Source: a phage. Taken from it: DNA of 64,000 nt. The stretch is from the sequence record PZ154897.1; one strand, given 5' to 3'. The notes beneath the pieces were generated by a model, which did not search any database, was not told the origin of the DNA, and was given only the letters and a program-made list of their open reading frames with translations. This document shows positions 37,806 to 45,254 of the stretch, piece by piece. Both the position numbers and the translations under genes were made by a program. Every line of letters starts with the position of its first letter. The stretch's first letter is position 1.

Positions 37806-38264
37806 TTATTTGATTTGTTTAGCAGACCAAATGCGGTCTTTAATAATTTTTTGGATGTCTTCAACATACTCTAGGTCATGAGCATGTGGATTATCTTTAA
37901 AACTATAAGCTCGCGCAAGTTTCTGGCCTTCGGTCTTAATTACCAAAAGTTCTTTAAGAATTGCTTCATACCTAGAAATAATTCCTTTAGCAATATTTTT
38001 TTCTTGTGCTGCTTTAGGGTCAGCCTTAGGAGCAGGTTTACCAGAAGGTTTTTCGAAAGCCGCACCAGTAGCAACCAGGCTTTTCCAGGCGGTGGTAACA
38101 TAGTTACCCACAAAGCCTTCAGCTCTCATATCGTCGTAGAACTTGTACCGAGATTCGTCAGAAGCATCTTTATAAGAATATTTACCAGCTTTAATAGCAG
38201 CAGTTGCTACAGCGCGAACATCTGAAGCGGATGCTTCATTTAAAAATTGAGCATATGATTTCAT
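37806..38264 (-). CDS. Internal-protein-like capsid-targeted protein (CTS MKSYAQFLNE with L-N-E protease site)
   Basis: 152 aa, Ala/Lys-rich; N-terminus resembles the T4 internal-protein targeting sequence MKTYQEFIAE; late promoter TATAAATA just upstream. Confidence 0.5.
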   Translation of the reverse strand: MKSYAQFLNEASASDVRAVATAAIKAGKYSYKDASDESRYKFYDDMRAEGFVGNYVTTAWKSLVATGAAFEKPSGKPAPKADPKAAQEKNIAKGIISRYEAILKELLVIKTEGQKLARAYSFKDNPHAHDLEYVEDIQKIIKDRIWSAKQIK

Positions 38265-38303
38265 CTTATTTCCTGTTTTAATTCGTGATTTAATATACTA
38301 CTA

Positions 38304-38311
38304 TATTTATA
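38304..38311 (-). promoter_or_regulatory. Late promoter box TATAAATA
   Basis: Plus-strand tatttata at 38304-38311, 40 nt upstream of the ATG at 38264. Confidence 0.5.
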
Positions 38312-38343
38312 CCAAAAAGCCCCAACCTTTCGGTCGGGGCTAA
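38309..38343. repeat. 35-bp perfect direct repeat (copy 2) carrying a terminator hairpin
   Basis: Identical to 37766-37800; the two copies bracket the CTS-protein gene 37806..38264. Confidence 0.8.
38312..38341 (-). terminator. Intrinsic terminator ending the tRNA/stable-RNA transcription unit
   Basis: Hairpin 38319-38340 with A5 at 38314-38318; identical to the copy at 37769-37798. Confidence 0.6.
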
Positions 38344-38344
38344 A

Positions 38345-38655
38345 GCCTTGCGGCAACCTTGTCGGGGTTCCACCTGCTAAGGCAAGTGTTTGTACGAAAC
38401 GCCGGGATTCGAACCCGGTTATTAAGCAGTTGACGCTACTTAATATTTTTAAAAGGCCATATCTCGACCATATCCGAACGTTCCGTCAAAAACGCTACTC
38501 GGCTTACGGCAAAGATATTTCCTCGAATCGATAATTCGGTGCGCCGTTTCTGCTGTGATGTAAGAGGGCATCAACAAATCATAAAGATTTATTAACGCAA
38601 TTCCTTACCCAGGGAACATCAGTCCGACGACTTACCGGTAGCGACCCGGTTTCTT
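38345..38655 (-). ncRNA. Probable small stable RNA region (position of T4 species 1 and 2 RNAs), includes a tRNA-like T-arm
   Basis: No ORF; lies between tRNA-Arg and a terminator; cggg-attcgaa-cccgg T-arm-like element at 38403-38419; boundaries not determined. Confidence 0.3.
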
Positions 38656-38658
38656 GTC

Positions 38659-38735
<77 letters not shown>

Positions 38736-38738
38736 TAA

Positions 38739-39404
38739 TTAAAATTTCATTTTTCGACCTTTAAACCATCCTTCTGGAATTGGGTCAGTTTTCTTAATAC
38801 GTTTAGAAACTTTTTCATCTAATGAATGAATCCACATCATACCAAATTGGGAATTCTTTTCGCCCTGTTGGTGTTTATTTCTGGCGTGAGATTCTTTCAT
38901 TTTATTAATAGTTTCAGGAGTATGGGTCTTACCCAAGAAAGATTTAATATTTAAAAATTTCTCTCTATACTTAGGATTATCCCAAAGCTGTTTAAACCTT
39001 TCTGAACCCATTTTACGATATTTTTCTTTAAGGTCTGGGTCGTTCTCAAATCTGGTTTTAAAAGCAGCAGCCCCTTTTAAGGAAGCTTCTTTCTTTTTAT
39101 CCAAATATTCTTTAGTGTTTAAATGGTCCCAACCACCTTCACCACCTAATTTCAAATTATAAACATCAGGGCGCTTTAAAAACTCTTCAGTCACAATATT
39201 CTTTTCTGACTCAAACATAGAGGTTTTATCGTCAAAGAACTCTAATATTTCTTTAGAGAAATTTTCTATACCATACTTGTCTTGGGCTCTTTTTAATAAT
39301 TTACCAGAACCCATATATCCATCATCTAAATTTTCGGTAGAATGAGCGCCTATATAGATTTTATTATTAATTTTATTTGTTATTTTATAAGTGTAATGGA
39401 ACAT
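38739..39404 (-). CDS. segB: GIY-YIG homing endonuclease SegB in the tRNA cluster
   Basis: 221 aa; MFHYTYKITNKINNKIYIGAHS; splits the tRNA cluster as in T4. Confidence 0.85.
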   Translation of the reverse strand: MFHYTYKITNKINNKIYIGAHSTENLDDGYMGSGKLLKRAQDKYGIENFSKEILEFFDDKTSMFESEKNIVTEEFLKRPDVYNLKLGGEGGWDHLNTKEYLDKKKEASLKGAAAFKTRFENDPDLKEKYRKMGSERFKQLWDNPKYREKFLNIKSFLGKTHTPETINKMKESHARNKHQQGEKNSQFGMMWIHSLDEKVSKRIKKTDPIPEGWFKGRKMKF

Positions 39405-39445
39405 AAATATCTCCTATTTCTAAGAGTATTTATGTTCCCAAAATA

Positions 39446-39517
39446 TGGCCCTGGGTGGAATTGAACCACCATCTGGCGATTATGAGTCGCTTGCTTGAAC
39501 CTTCCAGCTACAGGGCC
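39446..39517 (-). tRNA. tRNA-Ile (anticodon CAU)
   Basis: Perfect 7-bp acceptor ggccctg/cagggcc; anticodon loop CUCAUAA; T-arm GGUGG-UUCAAUU-CCACC; CCA not encoded. Confidence 0.75.
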
Positions 39518-39523
39518 TTGATA

Positions 39524-39596
39524 TGCTGATTGACGGAATCGAACCGCCGACATCCTCATTACAAGTGAGGTGCTCTACCTACTGAGCTAAATCAGC
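39524..39596 (-). tRNA. tRNA-Thr (anticodon UGU)
   Basis: Acceptor gctgatt/aatcagc; anticodon stem-loop with CUUGUAA. Confidence 0.75.
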
Positions 39597-39603
39597 GAAA
39601 TTA

Positions 39604-39690
39604 CGGAGGCGATAGGATTTGAACCTATGAGTCACCGGAGCGACTGCCGGTTTTCAAGACCGGTGCATTAAACCACTCTGCCACGCCTCC
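39604..39690 (-). tRNA. tRNA-Ser (anticodon UGA), long variable arm
   Basis: Acceptor ggaggcg/cgcctcc; anticodon loop CUUGAAA; 87 nt. Confidence 0.75.
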
Positions 39691-39692
39691 AG

Positions 39693-39766
39693 TCTCCGCG
39701 GCAGGATTTGAACCTGTGACATTCTGCTCCCAAAGCAGACGCTCTACCAAACTGAGCTACACGGAG
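39693..39766 (-). tRNA. tRNA-Pro (anticodon UGG)
   Basis: Acceptor with one U-G pair; anticodon loop UUUGGGA. Confidence 0.7.
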
Positions 39767-39778
39767 TAAATTAAATTT

Positions 39779-39850
<72 letters not shown>

Positions 39851-39856
39851 AAACTT

Positions 39857-39943
39857 TGGTACGAGAAGTGGGACTCGAACCCACAAGGAAATCATTCCGC
39901 AGCATTTTAAGTGCTGTGCCTTTACCAATTTGACCATTCTCGC
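39857..39943 (-). tRNA. tRNA-Leu (anticodon UAA), long variable arm, CCA encoded
   Basis: 5' GCGAGAA; anticodon loop CUUAAAA; 3' CCA from plus-strand tgg at 39857-39859. Confidence 0.75.
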
Positions 39944-39944
39944 G

Positions 39945-40017
39945 CGGGGAATAAAGGACTCGAACCTTTGCATCTAGCAGTCAAAGTGCTATGCCTTACC
40001 AACTTGGCTAATTCCCA
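39945..40017 (-). tRNA. tRNA-Gln (anticodon UUG)
   Basis: 5' UGGGAAU; anticodon loop CUUUGAC; position 1-72 is a mismatch; directly abuts tRNA-Leu. Confidence 0.7.
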
Positions 40018-40079
40018 ATTATTAACAAAGGCTCTCTAACAAGAACCCTTGATGATAGAGGGTATTAATCAGTGCGATA

Positions 40080-40113
40080 TGAGTTAATAATAACAAATAA
40101 TTCTTAAAGCATA
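40080..40113 (-). promoter_or_regulatory. Candidate MotA-dependent middle promoter upstream of the tRNA cluster
   Basis: Minus-strand ATGCTTTAA (MotA-box-like) at 40105-40113 followed about 12 nt later by a TATTAT-like -10. Confidence 0.3.
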
Positions 40114-40114
40114 T

Positions 40115-40402
40115 TTACCATTTATGATAATACATATTTACGATGCATTCAAGACCCAAAGAATTCTTGAAAATATCATATTCAAGAGGACCTTTTTCTG
40201 TTTCAATAAAGAAATCAAAGTTAACTGTGTTAAATTTACGGTCTTCCTTCACTAATTTAACTTGAGAAGATGAACGGTCAACATAAACCTTTTCAACTTC
40301 AAAACATGTTAAAACGCCATAATCATCAATCAAGGCTTTAGCTGCTTCTTGATCATATTTATATCCATTTTCAATGGATGATACTTTCGCATAAAGAATC
40401 AT
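40115..40402 (-). CDS. Hypothetical protein, 95 aa
   Basis: ORF track; no capsid-targeting sequence. Confidence 0.45.
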   Translation of the reverse strand: MILYAKVSSIENGYKYDQEAAKALIDDYGVLTCFEVEKVYVDRSSSQVKLVKEDRKFNTVNFDFFIETEKGPLEYDIFKNSLGLECIVNMYYHKW

Positions 40403-40404
40403 TA

Positions 40405-40788
40405 TCAGCCTTCATCAACAATAGTATGAGTATTGGCATTTACAATTTGCCACCAATCAAAGCGGTTGGAACCATAATCTGGTTTGTTTTCATTTTCTTT
40501 GATAATGTCACGGAGTTCATCTTCAGTGGCGGCTTTCGCGATTAAATCAGCATATCCACCACGAGGATAATAATTATCACCTGCAAAAAGTAAAAAATTT
40601 GGTTTAATATTATTAAACTCTTCAAGAGTAATAACTTTTCCTGATGGTAGTTGAACAATCTCTACATATTTATATCCTAATTTTTGAGCAGCATCTACTG
40701 CTTCAAGCAAAGTATCATGAGCCCATCCAATTTGACAACCTGGCTTTTCAGATGGATTAGCCTGATAATCCGCGTACACTTTATACAT
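40405..40788 (-). CDS. Hypothetical protein, about 127 aa
   Basis: ORF track 40405..40821 trimmed to ATG 40788 with SD AAGGTG. Confidence 0.45.
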   Translation of the reverse strand: MYKVYADYQANPSEKPGCQIGWAHDTLLEAVDAAQKLGYKYVEIVQLPSGKVITLEEFNNIKPNFLLFAGDNYYPRGGYADLIAKAATEDELRDIIKENENKPDYGSNRFDWWQIVNANTHTIVDEG

Positions 40789-40789
40789 T

Positions 40790-40975
40790 CTATTCACCTT
40801 TAGAAATTTTATCCATAACAATAGCGATTAAACCAATTAAAAATGCTACTACAAGTGAAAACACATTTTCTGCTGTAGTTAATAATCCACATATAAATCC
40901 AACAAACATTGAAAAACTAAAAGCAGAAGCAGAAATTGCAATAGCAACATTTCGAATTAATTCACATCGTTTCAT
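40790..40975 (-). CDS. Small membrane protein, 61 aa
   Basis: Two hydrophobic helices; SD GAGGAG; downstream of an early promoter cassette. Confidence 0.45.
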   Translation of the reverse strand: MKRCELIRNVAIAISASAFSFSMFVGFICGLLTTAENVFSLVVAFLIGLIAIVMDKISKGE

Positions 40976-40992
40976 TTTATTCTCCTCAGTAA

Positions 40993-41038
40993 TTGATAGG
41001 GTAATAGTATCACACTACTACCCAGAAGTAAACAACTT
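40993..41038. repeat. Repeated early-promoter cassette, copy A (ttgatagggtaatagtatcaca ... gtaaacaactt)
   Basis: About 45-bp unit also found at 41285-41330 and 41621-41667. Confidence 0.7.
41005..41033 (-). promoter_or_regulatory. T4-type early promoter (cassette copy A)
   Basis: gtaaac at 41028-41033, 17-bp spacer, tagtatcaca at 41005-41014. Confidence 0.5.
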
Positions 41039-41261
41039 ATTCCGCTCCAGCAGCTTTCAAAAGCTTTTTAAGATTAACAGTGCCACGAGCAGAAAACGTG
41101 ACTTTACCATCCTTTTCACTAATAGAGCCAGTTAACTTAGAAAGTTTATCGCTAGGAATTTTTTTAAAATCACTTAATGTACCATCAAAAGTTTTCGTAA
41201 CAATTGGTAGTTCATCTTCATGTCTTTTAGCTTCATTGATAAATTCTTGATATGTTTTCAT
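41037..41261 (-). CDS. Internal-protein-like capsid-targeted protein (CTS MKTYQEFINE)
   Basis: ORF track 41037..41273; likely start at ATG 41261, giving the canonical CTS with I-N-E protease site; about 74 aa. Confidence 0.55.
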   Translation of the reverse strand: MKTYQEFINEAKRHEDELPIVTKTFDGTLSDFKKIPSDKLSKLTGSISEKDGKVTFSARGTVNLKKLLKAAGAE

Positions 41262-41284
41262 TTTGATTTCCATTTAGTTTTGTT

Positions 41285-41330
41285 TTGATAGGGTAATAGT
41301 ATCACAACTAAACCACCGTGTAAACAATTT
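41285..41330. repeat. Repeated early-promoter cassette, copy B
   Basis: Near-identical to copies A and C. Confidence 0.7.
41297..41325 (-). promoter_or_regulatory. T4-type early promoter (cassette copy B)
   Basis: gtaaac at 41320-41325; tagtatcaca at 41297-41306. Confidence 0.5.
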
Positions 41331-41601
41331 ATTTTAAATAAATTGCATATTTTTTATAACCAGCCGTCTCGTGACGCAGACCTTTTTCATTAGCAAAGCG
41401 TTCAATATTATTAATTTGATTCTGATCAAGTTCTGAAATATCAAATACAAAAAAGTTTCGTTTATTTCCTAACGTTACATGATTCGTCAAATCAATGTTA
41501 TAAAGATGATTTATATTATCAATCATAGTCTTAACAGATTTGCTAATTTTTACTTCTTCATTAAGAGCAGATTCAACGATAAACTCTTTGAAAGTTTTCA
41601 T
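41329..41601 (-). CDS. Internal-protein-like capsid-targeted protein (CTS MKTFKEFIVE)
   Basis: 90 aa; CTS-like N-terminus with I-V-E site; SD AGGAA. Confidence 0.5.
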   Translation of the reverse strand: MKTFKEFIVESALNEEVKISKSVKTMIDNINHLYNIDLTNHVTLGNKRNFFVFDISELDQNQINNIERFANEKGLRHETAGYKKYAIYLK

Positions 41602-41620
41602 TTTATTTTCCTAATTAATT

Positions 41621-41667
41621 TTGATGAGGTAATAGTATCACAACTAAAACCCCGTGTAAACAACTTT
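41621..41667. repeat. Repeated early-promoter cassette, copy C
   Basis: Near-identical to copies A and B. Confidence 0.7.
41633..41661 (-). promoter_or_regulatory. T4-type early promoter (cassette copy C)
   Basis: gtaaac at 41656-41661; tagtatcaca at 41633-41642. Confidence 0.5.
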
Positions 41668-41673
41668 GTGAAA

Positions 41674-42370
<697 letters not shown>

Positions 42371-42371
<1 letters not shown>

Positions 42372-43084
42372 TATAGTACCTTTAGTGTATTTTTAATTTT
42401 AGAAAAAAGTTCTTCAAGAGAACCATCGTTTGTAATTACTAAATCGCCATCACGAATTGGCAATCCAGCTTCTGTAATATGTGTATCATTGGATTTTTGA
42501 CCAGGACGAACTACATGAATTACTGTAGCACCCATCGCCCTAGCCGCATCCATTTCATGATCTTGACGAGTATCAGGAACGATATAATAATCATAACCTG
42601 AGTTAAATTTATCAAGATAATCTAAAGCAAATAATTTTACCCAATACATGCGGTCGAAGTTATTAACAATCAAATCCGTACCTAGGGCTTGCATCAGACG
42701 ACGGACTGACCATTGATCTTCAATATTATTTATAACGTCAGCAATCTTGTTAAATGCTACGAAATTAACTGCGTCATCAAAAACAAACACACCTTTAATT
42801 GGGCTTTTACTATTAAGATAGCAAAATGCTTGTTCCATAATCGTGATTACTTCTGATTTAGTCAGATTTAAATTAGTCTCACGATCATAGTCAATTCCTT
42901 CAAACTCTCTACGAGTTAAGCAAGGATAGTCAGTGTTTGCTGCAAATACACCCCATGCATAAGCCAATGCATCTTTAATAGGACCAGCAAGTTGATATTT
43001 AACTGCAGAATAATTATTCATGATAAAATCTGCAGTAGTATCTTTTCCACTACGCTTTACACCACTTAAAAAGATTAGTTTCAT
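42371..43084 (-). CDS. 1: Deoxynucleoside monophosphate kinase gp1
   Basis: 237 aa; P-loop GVKRSGKDT. Confidence 0.9.
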
Positions 43085-43133: not shown

Positions 43134-43664
43134 TTAAACTTCTGCTATAATTTTGCCATCTTTTTCTACTTGAAAATACGTATAAGGAATCGTTGCTGTG
43201 CATACTAAAGCTGGGTCTGAATCTTCTGTGTAGCTAAATTCTACTTCAGACAGGTCAGAAACCCAAGGCTTATAAAAGTTTATTGACATCACGATTTCAG
43301 TTTTACTATTATCTAAAATGTAAAGCGTAATGTATTCAGGACCTGTTTTTTGGGCAGTATTTTCGCCTGTAAGATAGTTACTAGTTCCTAGCATCCATTC
43401 ATACATTCCTATCCACGACTTAAGTTCTTCATCAACTATAAATCTCACAATGAGTGGGTCGTACTCAAATGTAACTCCTGGACGTTGTGCTCGGCCCAGT
43501 CCAAACGGCCCAGTCACAGTATCAGTAACAGGTATTCTAATTCCTGGAATAGGAACTGACTGAGCATTTAAAGTAAAAGCAGATGTAGTATTACTATGTG
43601 GTATTGATACTACAAAGTTAGTTGTATTTGCTTGGTTAAAAATTTGTTGCAGAGCTTGCGACAT
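43134..43664 (-). CDS. 3: Tail tube terminator / sheath stabiliser gp3
   Basis: ORF track 43134..43745 trimmed to ATG 43664 (MSQALQQIFNQ, SD GAGGAA), 176 aa. Confidence 0.85.
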   Translation of the reverse strand: MSQALQQIFNQANTTNFVVSIPHSNTTSAFTLNAQSVPIPGIRIPVTDTVTGPFGLGRAQRPGVTFEYDPLIVRFIVDEELKSWIGMYEWMLGTSNYLTGENTAQKTGPEYITLYILDNSKTEIVMSINFYKPWVSDLSEVEFSYTEDSDPALVCTATIPYTYFQVEKDGKIIAEV

Positions 43665-43770
43665 ATATTCCTCATAATGCTTTATAAATGTTGGTGGTAT
43701 AATGGGTCTAAGTCCCTTCCATTCAATTCCAATTAGAACAAACAATAGAAAAGAATGGAAGATAATAGAA

Positions 43771-44430
43771 TTAATTTATTAGACTTCTTAAACGAGCAGA
43801 AGTCATAAATGGAAATTTTTCTAAAGTTGGCTTTCGCCAATATCTTGGATGACAAGTTGATTTAAAATCAAGAACAATTTTCTTTGCTTCATCAATAGTG
43901 CTAACTCCAAAGTTATCTAACATTATTTTCTTTTCTTTTTCCCACCGTTTATTAGCTAAAGCAGATTGAAGCTTTTTGTTTTTAAATGTATCATTTTTTC
44001 TAGAATGAGTTGTGCCTTGTGTCGGACTCCATCCTCTTCCTAAAATAAATCCCTCAGGAATTATATCTCCATCATGCAATTTTATACATCTTTTACCATT
44101 ATTATAATATTTTCGTCCAGTTTGTGTATTTGAAATATTATTTGCATGTTTTCTTTTTAACCAACCATAAACTTTATTATTTCTCCTAACATATTTAGTT
44201 GAAACCGTCATTTTTATGGCCGCATAAGATAATTTTAAAGAATTTGGGTGTATTTTTACTAATAGTTGATGTGCAACATAATGCTCTTCTGGAGTTAAAT
44301 CAACCAAGTTAGAAGCATCATTACTACCGCCTAAACATTTCGGAATAATATGATGTCTTTCTTTATATCCAGTAAGGGCTCTATTGCGAGCCCTATCAAT
44401 TAGTGAATTATAAATTTTTTCATAATTCAT
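43771..44430 (-). CDS. HNH endonuclease (free-standing homing-endonuclease-like) between genes 2 and 3
   Basis: HNH motif [27 protein letters not shown]; ATG 44430 forms an ATGA overlap with the gene 2 stop; ORF track begins 5 codons upstream at TTG. Confidence 0.7.
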
Positions 44431-45254
44431 CGTACATTGCTCCAAACTTTGTTTGCAGAGAAACGTTTTCCTTTGGAGTAGAAGCTTTGGAGTGGCATCA
44501 ACACAACGTTCGCCCAGTCTTTCGGGGCGATTTCAACAAGGCTACCCATAATATTACCAGGTATATATGCCTTAATCATTTGGTCTGCACCCCTAAATCC
44601 TTTCACTTGACTCCAATCAATTTTTAATTTCGTTTTATTAGTAATAGTAGGTGTATTTGAATATTGCTTTAAAAGCTCTTCTAGAAATTGCTGACGAGCT
44701 TTAGGTGGAATATAGTGCAAGTTCAATCCATACATTAAATTATGTTTACCTAAACCGAGGTAAATTATCAAAGGAAATTTATCCCAATAAGGAAGAGTTT
44801 CCTTGTGTTTAGCATCATAAGCAAAAGCATATATTCGTCCCGGCTGCGGGCGAACAACTTTATGTCCTTTTACTTGCTTAATAGTTTCAGCAAACCACTT
44901 TCTGGTTTTATTATTAATTGCTGCGCCTTCATTACGAATTTTATCACGCAATGTTTGTCTGAATGAATTTATCATAAGCAGTTGTCTTTCTTGCTTATTG
45001 AGTTTATTCATTGGTTTTGATTCAAGCTTTTGAATCTTTTCAGCCGTTTTAATTCCTGAAGCATATTTTGACATTGCCGAAGTAAACGTAGAGTATTTGA
45101 TTCCTCTTTCTTCAGCAAATTGCTTTCCTGTCATTCCTTTTGCTTTGGCCTTTTTGTATTCAAGACCTATCTGAATCCATTTCTTTTCATTTAATGATTG
45201 CTTAACCTTTGGAACTTGGGGAGTGCTTTCATTAATTATTTGAAAAATAGCCAT
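44427..45254 (-). CDS. 2: DNA end protector protein gp2
   Basis: 275 aa; position between genes 4 and 3. Confidence 0.85.

Follow-up and report, generated by a model that had tools for sequence, protein, structure and literature searches.

In phage T4 the first 10 residues of the internal protein (IP) IPIII are enough for packaging, residues 4 and 7 serving for targeting and residues 8 and 10 for processing by gp21 (PMC9026906). T4 Ip1, Ip2 and Ip3 are inhibitors of GmrSD type IV restriction enzymes, each acting on a different one, and other Ip-locus proteins have been proposed to inhibit GmrSD likewise (Silas and co-workers, PMC12373910). The pattern of gene shuffling at the IP locus, and the promoter cassette that goes with it, are attributed to Repoila 1994 in the summaries given by Arbiol 2010 (PMC2839356) and Comeau 2014 (PMC4122927). 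In Arbiol 2010 this pattern was recast as similar to the PeSLs, elements defined as a promoter plus a stem-loop, and the T-even IP-locus elements, with 'weaker, more AT-rich' stem-loops, were described as analogues rather than homologues of the PeSLs of RB49 (PMC2839356). PeSL mini-circles have been shown for RB49 and phi1 only (PMC2839356, PMC4122927). Here, a 64,000-nucleotide stretch of phage DNA (sequence record PZ154897.1, the whole of which is referred to as the window) was analysed for the region at positions 40,993 to 41,667, which holds two small open reading frames (ORFs), ip9 and ip8, and repeated promoter cassettes. Coordinates are those of the window, and the genes and cassettes lie on the minus strand.

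The ORF pair and the repeats very probably constitute the ipI-type internal-protein locus of a T-even (Tequatrovirus-like) phage, in which ip9 and ip8 replace T4 ipI and which would follow the life cycle and the shuffling set out below. Both genes belong to already named internal-protein families of T4-like phages and are not new; the cassette type and the shuffling model at this locus are likewise already known from earlier publications, as textbook ipI-locus polymorphism.

The ip9 and ip8 genes at the ipI position

The minus strand reads 57B (Acb1), cassette, a 90-aa ORF (ip9, 41329-41601), cassette, a 74-aa ORF (ip8, 41037-41261), cassette and trna.4. In the wider order 57A-57B-ip9-ip8-trna.4-trna.3-trna.2-tRNAs the slots agree with those of T4 (57A-57B-ipI-trna.4-trna.3-trna.2-tRNAs) and of RB15, so that ip9-ip8 occupy the ipI slot. 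The left border of the locus is 57B (41674-42129), an Acb1-type anti-CBASS phosphodiesterase gene assigned by Pfam Acb1 (2.6e-60), PHROG 755 and the T4 57B position. The right border (40790-40975) encodes a 61-aa predicted membrane protein, in which a simple hydropathy scan picked out two hydrophobic stretches; the sequence-only reading had called it a small membrane-protein gene, and PHROG 1692 (6e-35) and its position identify it as T4 trna.4. Tequatrovirus phages were the nearest database records, and in the phage collection no record matched the 1-kb locus at above 88% identity over 80% or more of its length.

Both ORFs carry the capsid-targeting leaders that the sequence-only reading had assigned to them, MKTFKEFIVE in Ip9 and MKTYQEFINE in Ip8, and its statement that the encoded proteins differ from each other holds, as beyond the leader there is no mutual similarity. 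Its suggestion that they may be previously uncharacterised was not borne out: matches in RB15, PHROG assignments and the record of phage vB_EcoM-VR5, in which ip8 and ip9 are both annotated, place them in families that this and other records name outright. Ip9 was 79% identical to RB15 Ip9 over its full length (E 7e-55), with the closest alleles in ECO07P2 (100%) and RB32 ('Ip9', 80%), was assigned to PHROG 7673 ('internal head protein', 9e-56) and had tblastn matches in 175 phage records. Ip8 was 82% identical to RB15 Ip8 over its full length (E 3e-45), with the closest allele in EP01 (96%), was assigned to PHROG 8765 ('internal virion protein', 6e-26) and had tblastn matches in 108 phage records. 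Pfam gave no above-threshold match for either protein. The window thus shares with RB15 both protein families, the 57B-trna.4 locus, the leader and the promoter cassettes between genes; it differs in holding only ip9-ip8 where RB15 has four genes, ip5-ip9-ip7-ip8, and in that the nearest individual alleles occur in other phages (ECO07P2 for Ip9, EP01 for Ip8).

The leaders of Ip8 and Ip9 have Y or F at position 4, F at 7, I at 8 and E at 10, with a predicted gp21 site of the form (L/I)-x-E (I8-N-E10 in Ip8, I8-V-E10 in Ip9), and F7, I8 and E10 were invariant in the alignments of both families. The Ip8 leader matches the IPII/IPIII leader MKTYQEFIAE at 9 of 10 positions, and the first seven residues of the Ip9 leader (MKTFKEF) are identical to those of IPI. 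Predicted cleavage after E10 would convert the 90-aa Ip9 precursor to a mature protein of 80 aa (9.3 kDa, isoelectric point (pI) 8.0) and the 74-aa Ip8 precursor to one of 64 aa (6.9 kDa, pI 9.6), similarly small and basic to IPI* (76 aa, pI 9.0) and IPII* (90 aa, pI 9.6). When the two proteins were aligned to IPI, IPII and IPIII, the check that the sequence-only reading had named, the leaders were shared, whereas the mature domains were unrelated (15-30% identity, forced alignment). Fold and profile searches gave no common fold signal. A scan of all six frames of the entire window with the leader pattern returned three matches, namely ip8, ip9 and a more divergent one at 37806-38264.

Promoter cassettes and their inverted repeat

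A repeat search returned a family of about 48 nt with three copies, 73-90% identical to the reference copy. The pattern GTTTAC-N13-TGTGATACTATTACC (21 specified bases) had three exact matches in the 64 kb, the only further site needing 3 mismatches; by chance 0 were expected, and 100 shuffles gave no match. The three near-identical promoter units described in the sequence-only reading were thus recovered, but the letters quoted there, 'gtaaac' and 'tagtatcaca', are those of the plus strand, whereas genes and promoters alike lie on the minus strand. There the motif is a -35 element (G)TTTAC(A/T), a 17-nt spacer and TG-n-TACTAT. All three cassettes fit TTTACW-N17-TAYWAT, which is the PeSL promoter consensus of the PST/T4 pair (Comeau 2014, PMC4122927), and in T4 ipI and trna.4 each stand behind a cassette with an identical core.

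Each cassette starts 3-12 nt past the preceding stop codon and runs into a short 5' untranslated region (5'UTR) with a Shine-Dalgarno sequence (SD). Cassette 3, before ip9 (41619-41666; repeat search and consensus scan), has -35 TTTACA at 41660-41655, the 17-nt spacer and TG-n-TACTAT with the -10 box at 41637-41632, followed by the ip9 5'UTR (41602-41618, SD AGGA). Cassette 2, before ip8 (41283-41330; repeat search and consensus scan), starts 3 nt past the ip9 stop codon and has -35 TTTACA at 41324-41319 and -10 TACTAT at 41301-41296, followed by the ip8 5'UTR (41262-41282). Translation of ip8 most likely begins at the ATG at 41261 rather than at the in-frame ATG at 41273, because the latter has no SD and because in EP01 and VEc74, where ip8 stands behind a 5'UTR of a different kind, GAGGAG lies immediately 5' of the MKT start codon. 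Cassette 1, before trna.4 (40991-41038; repeat search, hexamers read by eye), has -35 TTTACT at 41032-41027, -10 TACTAT at 41009-41004 and SD GAGGAG. In the consensus scan the ip9 and ip8 cassettes each matched at 9 of 12 positions; the trna.4 cassette, with TTTACT, reached 8 of 12 by hand count, under the threshold of the scanner.

In time-resolved omics of T4, ipI and trna.4 RNAs are early, the RNA of 57B, just upstream of the ipI cassette, is middle, and Ip proteins accumulate late (PMC9697503 supplement). By analogy, these RNA classes fit an active early promoter in the cassette, and the T4 data show that early transcription and late packaging would be compatible. The units resemble the PeSLs described for RB49/phi1, PST/T4 and nt-1/KVP40 (Arbiol 2010, Comeau 2014) in being composite intergenic elements of predicted early promoter and SD/start codon, with an inverted repeat that is common among related cassettes, in recurring between the small variable ORFs of a hyperplastic region, and in having indel and exchange breakpoints within the unit. 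They differ in that the inverted repeat overlaps the spacer and the -10 box, whereas in PeSLs it lies upstream of the promoter, and in that it is degraded in two of the three window copies.

The inverted repeat was examined in 48 unique cassettes, drawn from the window itself, from eleven annotated phage loci and from 17 IMG/VR stretches (29 sources in all); 71% of these cassettes had z < -2, with a median z of -3.7. The T4 ipI cassette forms a perfect 13-bp hairpin enclosing the -10 box (z -3.6), and cassette 1 an 11-bp hairpin enclosing it (z -2.1, or -5.2 on the 40-nt core). The arms are mismatched in cassette 2, which has no hairpin (z -0.03), and in cassette 3, which has a weak one (z -1.15), as is expected after crossovers between cassette types. 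Across the set the arms covary, GATGAG pairing with CTCATC and GAT(A/G)GG with CCTATC.

These features raise the question whether the unit works mainly through the inverted repeat that surrounds the -10 box, either as an RNA hairpin ending or stabilising the message from upstream or, in recombination, as a DNA structure or a protein site, with the promoter secondary. The perfect T4 hairpin, the median z, the arm covariation and the definition of published PeSLs as promoter plus stem-loop all speak for it, as does the count of 29 cells changed on both sides, reached in 0 of 500 shuffles, although relatedness among the sequences inflates the shuffle statistics. The slide controls were not clean, with 63.6% of cells still paired at slide -3, and pairing registers vary by cassette type, at least three existing; selection for pairing is suggestive only. 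Moreover, two of the three window cassettes have lost the hairpin with the promoter core intact, and the stem has no T-run after it, so it is not a classical, intrinsic terminator. Such a role for the repeat is considered improbable, and the cassettes are read here as three predicted early promoters. A single pairing register for all cassettes was also tried and fits only some of them. A strict 'promoter-terminator' reading was dropped, since there are no intrinsic terminators between the genes (0 terminator-like sites in 40000-42500). A search of 38000-42200 against Rfam returned tRNAs only, the cassettes corresponding to no curated RNA family.

Exchange within cassettes and leader codons

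The proposal in the sequence-only reading that the cassettes provide homology for shuffling is supported by a switch from one matching phage to another that falls in the cassette and leader codons. From 41760 to 41230 the window was 97.6% identical to ECO07P2, a stretch that takes in the 57B end, cassettes 3 and 2 with ip9 between them, and the initial 10 codons of the gene that follows; the ECO07P2 gene after ip9 is 309 nt, the length of RB15 ip7, and is not ip8. From 41306 to 40700 it was 97.5% identical to Shigella phage vB_SsoM_113, across ip8, cassette 1 and trna.4 together with the -10 box of cassette 2; the vB_SsoM_113 gene upstream of ip8 is ip5, not ip9. The ECO07P2-like and vB_SsoM_113-like matches overlap in 41306-41230 only (-10 core, 5'UTR and leader codons), and the crossover must therefore lie there. 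Judged from these two matches, the window is itself a recombinant.

Cassette 3 equals its ECO07P2 counterpart (L005 1711-1782) except for an 11-nt patch in the spacer, ACGGGGTTTTAGTT versus ACGTTGATGAGGTA, which is of a type seen in other cassettes, for example those of G4498 and T4 trna.4. As its spacer and its right arm are of different cassette types, cassette 3 is a chimeric unit. The patch destroys the 13/14-bp hairpin found in ECO07P2 and T4, and it looks like a short conversion tract within the cassette.

The region had been described in the sequence-only reading as hypervariable among T-even phages, and its position is indeed that of one of the two polymorphic IP loci, the one between 57B and trna.4. 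Nine different 57B-trna.4 arrangements were found, counting the window, with gene names outside RB15 assigned mostly from the length of the coding sequence and the N-terminal sequence rather than from record annotation: ipI in T4; ip5-ip9-ip7-ip8 in RB15 and VEc74; ipI-like-ip9-ip7-ip8 in EP01; ip9-ip7-ip8 in G4498; ip9-ip7 in ECO07P2 and HMD-9; ip5-ip8 in vB_SsoM_113; ip7-ip9-ip8 in ESCO47; orf-ip8-ip9 in IME341; and ip9-ip8 in the window. Three kinds of 5'UTR pair freely with different ip genes. In the Dhakavirus IME341 (L027 2501-3000) the order of ip8 and ip9 is reversed relative to the window, and the two genes are 2 nt apart with no cassette between them, so that cassette-independent rearrangement, or later cassette loss, also happens.

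Under the proposed mechanism each ip gene would be a self-contained unit consisting of a T4-type early promoter (-35 TTTACW, 17 nt, TGn-TACTAT), a short 5'UTR with SD, 10 capsid-targeting codons, an unrelated 'cargo' domain and a stop codon. The promoter cassette and leader codons would be the sole homology common to otherwise unrelated ip genes, and homologous recombination there would add, delete, swap and reorder ip genes among co-infecting phages. The same junctions could arise if the cassettes were ordinary strong early promoters, conserved for promoter work only, with incidental general homologous recombination at them and no dedicated 'mobile cassette' (PeSL mini-circle) mechanism. The conserved core consists of exactly the -35, TGn and -10 elements; breakpoints fall in the leader codons too, another block conserved for function; ip8 and ip9 are reversed in IME341 with no cassette between them; and the T-even IP elements are termed analogues of PeSLs, not homologues, in Arbiol 2010. 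However, the exact cassette type occurs at this locus only within the 64 kb, despite the many other early promoters necessarily present there, and a plain promoter needs neither the conservation beyond the hexamers nor the inverted repeat around the -10 box found in most cassettes, with its compensatory arm variants. The ordinary-promoter explanation is considered a possibility of some substance, but less likely than not; shuffling at self-contained cassette-and-leader units is the favoured explanation.

Cargo domains, flanking genes and implications

By analogy with T4 IPI-III, the leader would direct the Ip8 and Ip9 precursors into the prohead scaffolding core, the prohead protease gp21 would cut after I-x-E at residue 10, and the small basic mature protein would stay in the head and be injected with the DNA, where it would most likely block one specific host defence nuclease. 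The best inference is thus that Ip8 and Ip9 would be injected inhibitors of host defence nucleases, like T4 Ip1-3 against GmrSD enzymes, although they show no sequence or fold relationship to the mature domains of IPI*, IPII and IPIII. An AlphaFold2 model of Ip9 (predicted local distance difference test score, pLDDT, 78) is alpha/beta (helix, helix, two strands, helix, two strands), and a predicted model of Ip8 had pLDDT 79, both models being of fair quality. A BFVD fold search returned no informative relative, and a PDB sequence search with profiles of both families returned nothing meaningful.

It is very unlikely that the main role of Ip8 and Ip9 is a structural or DNA-condensing one, as head fillers (basic counter-ions or IPIII-like scaffold helpers) with no specific host target. 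The high pI of mature Ip8 and the uninformative fold searches would suit such proteins, as would the head-assembly defects of IPIII-negative T4 and the binding of DNA by IPs at low salt (PMC9026906). However, mature Ip9 is nearly neutral, the locus is dispensable with a gene number of 1 to 4, the anti-CBASS gene acb1 adjoins, all three T4 IPs have specific GmrSD targets (PMC12373910), and a leaderless Ip9 domain is an early gene in siphophages without T4-type heads.

Several points weigh against the ipI-type reading with its packaged, injected nuclease inhibitors. No demonstration of packaging, cleavage or injection of Ip8 or Ip9, and no virion proteomics or functional test of them, was found in the literature searched by name, and for this phage the cassettes are predicted promoters that resemble the early promoters of T4. 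The late-promoter motif TATAAATA does not occur directly upstream of ip9 or ip8, the nearest same-strand copy lying within gene 1, at 42727-42734, so that late synthesis for packaging would depend on read-through or on a stable early message or protein. The Ip9 mature domain, searched for exhaustively with HMMER and also with tblastn, was found without the leader in proteins of 66-74 aa and in Guernseyvirinae siphophages, as a small gene of the early region; in one of these, M01 (L025 3504-3722), it is the first gene of a small-gene cluster beside replication genes. The domain also lies inside phage proteins of 535-861 aa, forming residues 661-734 of the 861-aa protein (PHROG 3867). Guernseyvirinae siphophages are not known to carry DNA with glucosylated hydroxymethylcytosine (glucosyl-hmC), an argument that the target of Ip9 need not be a glucosyl-hmC-specific nuclease.

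In other T4-like relatives the Ip9 domain stands behind the variant leaders MKSFKEYLTE and MKTFQEFLNE, and together the variant leaders and the leaderless forms would fit a 'leader plus captured cargo' origin. The Ip9 cargo could then be a portable anti-host module captured by leader fusion, with a target that is not glucosyl-hmC-specific, so that Ip9 would not be another GmrSD inhibitor; this is regarded as somewhat unlikely. If true, it would contradict the proposal that every Ip-locus protein has a GmrSD variant as its target.

The third leader match, a 152-aa ORF (37806-38264, minus strand), has the divergent capsid-targeting-like leader MKSYAQFLNE|A and its own late-promoter motif TATAAATA at 38304-38311, in the upstream region 38265-38360, with a GC-rich hairpin and T-run just upstream. 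It was assigned to PHROG 2280 ('unknown function') and had 512 phage matches, those listed being all hypothetical or unannotated; the corresponding place in T4, between e.8 and the small RNAs, holds no gene. The ORF may encode an unannotated internal protein whose expression is late and not early.

Upstream of the locus on the same strand lie 57A (42129-42371), gene 1 (42371-43084) and gene 3 (43134-43745). In many records 57B carries an 'RNA ligase' label, though it is Acb1-family by Pfam. A putative homing-endonuclease ORF (43771-44445, minus strand; HNH-like, by eye from the translation) lies upstream of gene 3, at a place where vB_SsoM_113 runs almost directly from gene 2 to gene 3. Downstream of trna.4, two conserved small genes (40405-40791 and 40115-40402, minus strand) are followed by an array of eight tRNA genes (38659-40017, minus strand). 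Within this array, at the T4 segB position, is a second putative homing-endonuclease ORF (38739-39404, minus strand) with a GIY-YIG-like start, also read by eye from the translation.

In annotation, the names ip9 and ip8 should be given to the two ORFs, and the label T-even early-promoter (PeSL-like) cassette to the three repeats between genes. What the window adds is one more clean natural recombinant, with its junction in the cassette and leader codons, and no new kind of element. As 57B is an Acb1-family anti-CBASS phosphodiesterase gene, the Ip locus directly adjoins another anti-defence gene, and Ip loci form an anti-defence hotspot beside acb1. Among Ip proteins, targets are known for Ip1-3 alone, a different GmrSD in each case, and with Ip8 and Ip9 two candidates are at hand for new inhibitors of defence delivered by injection.

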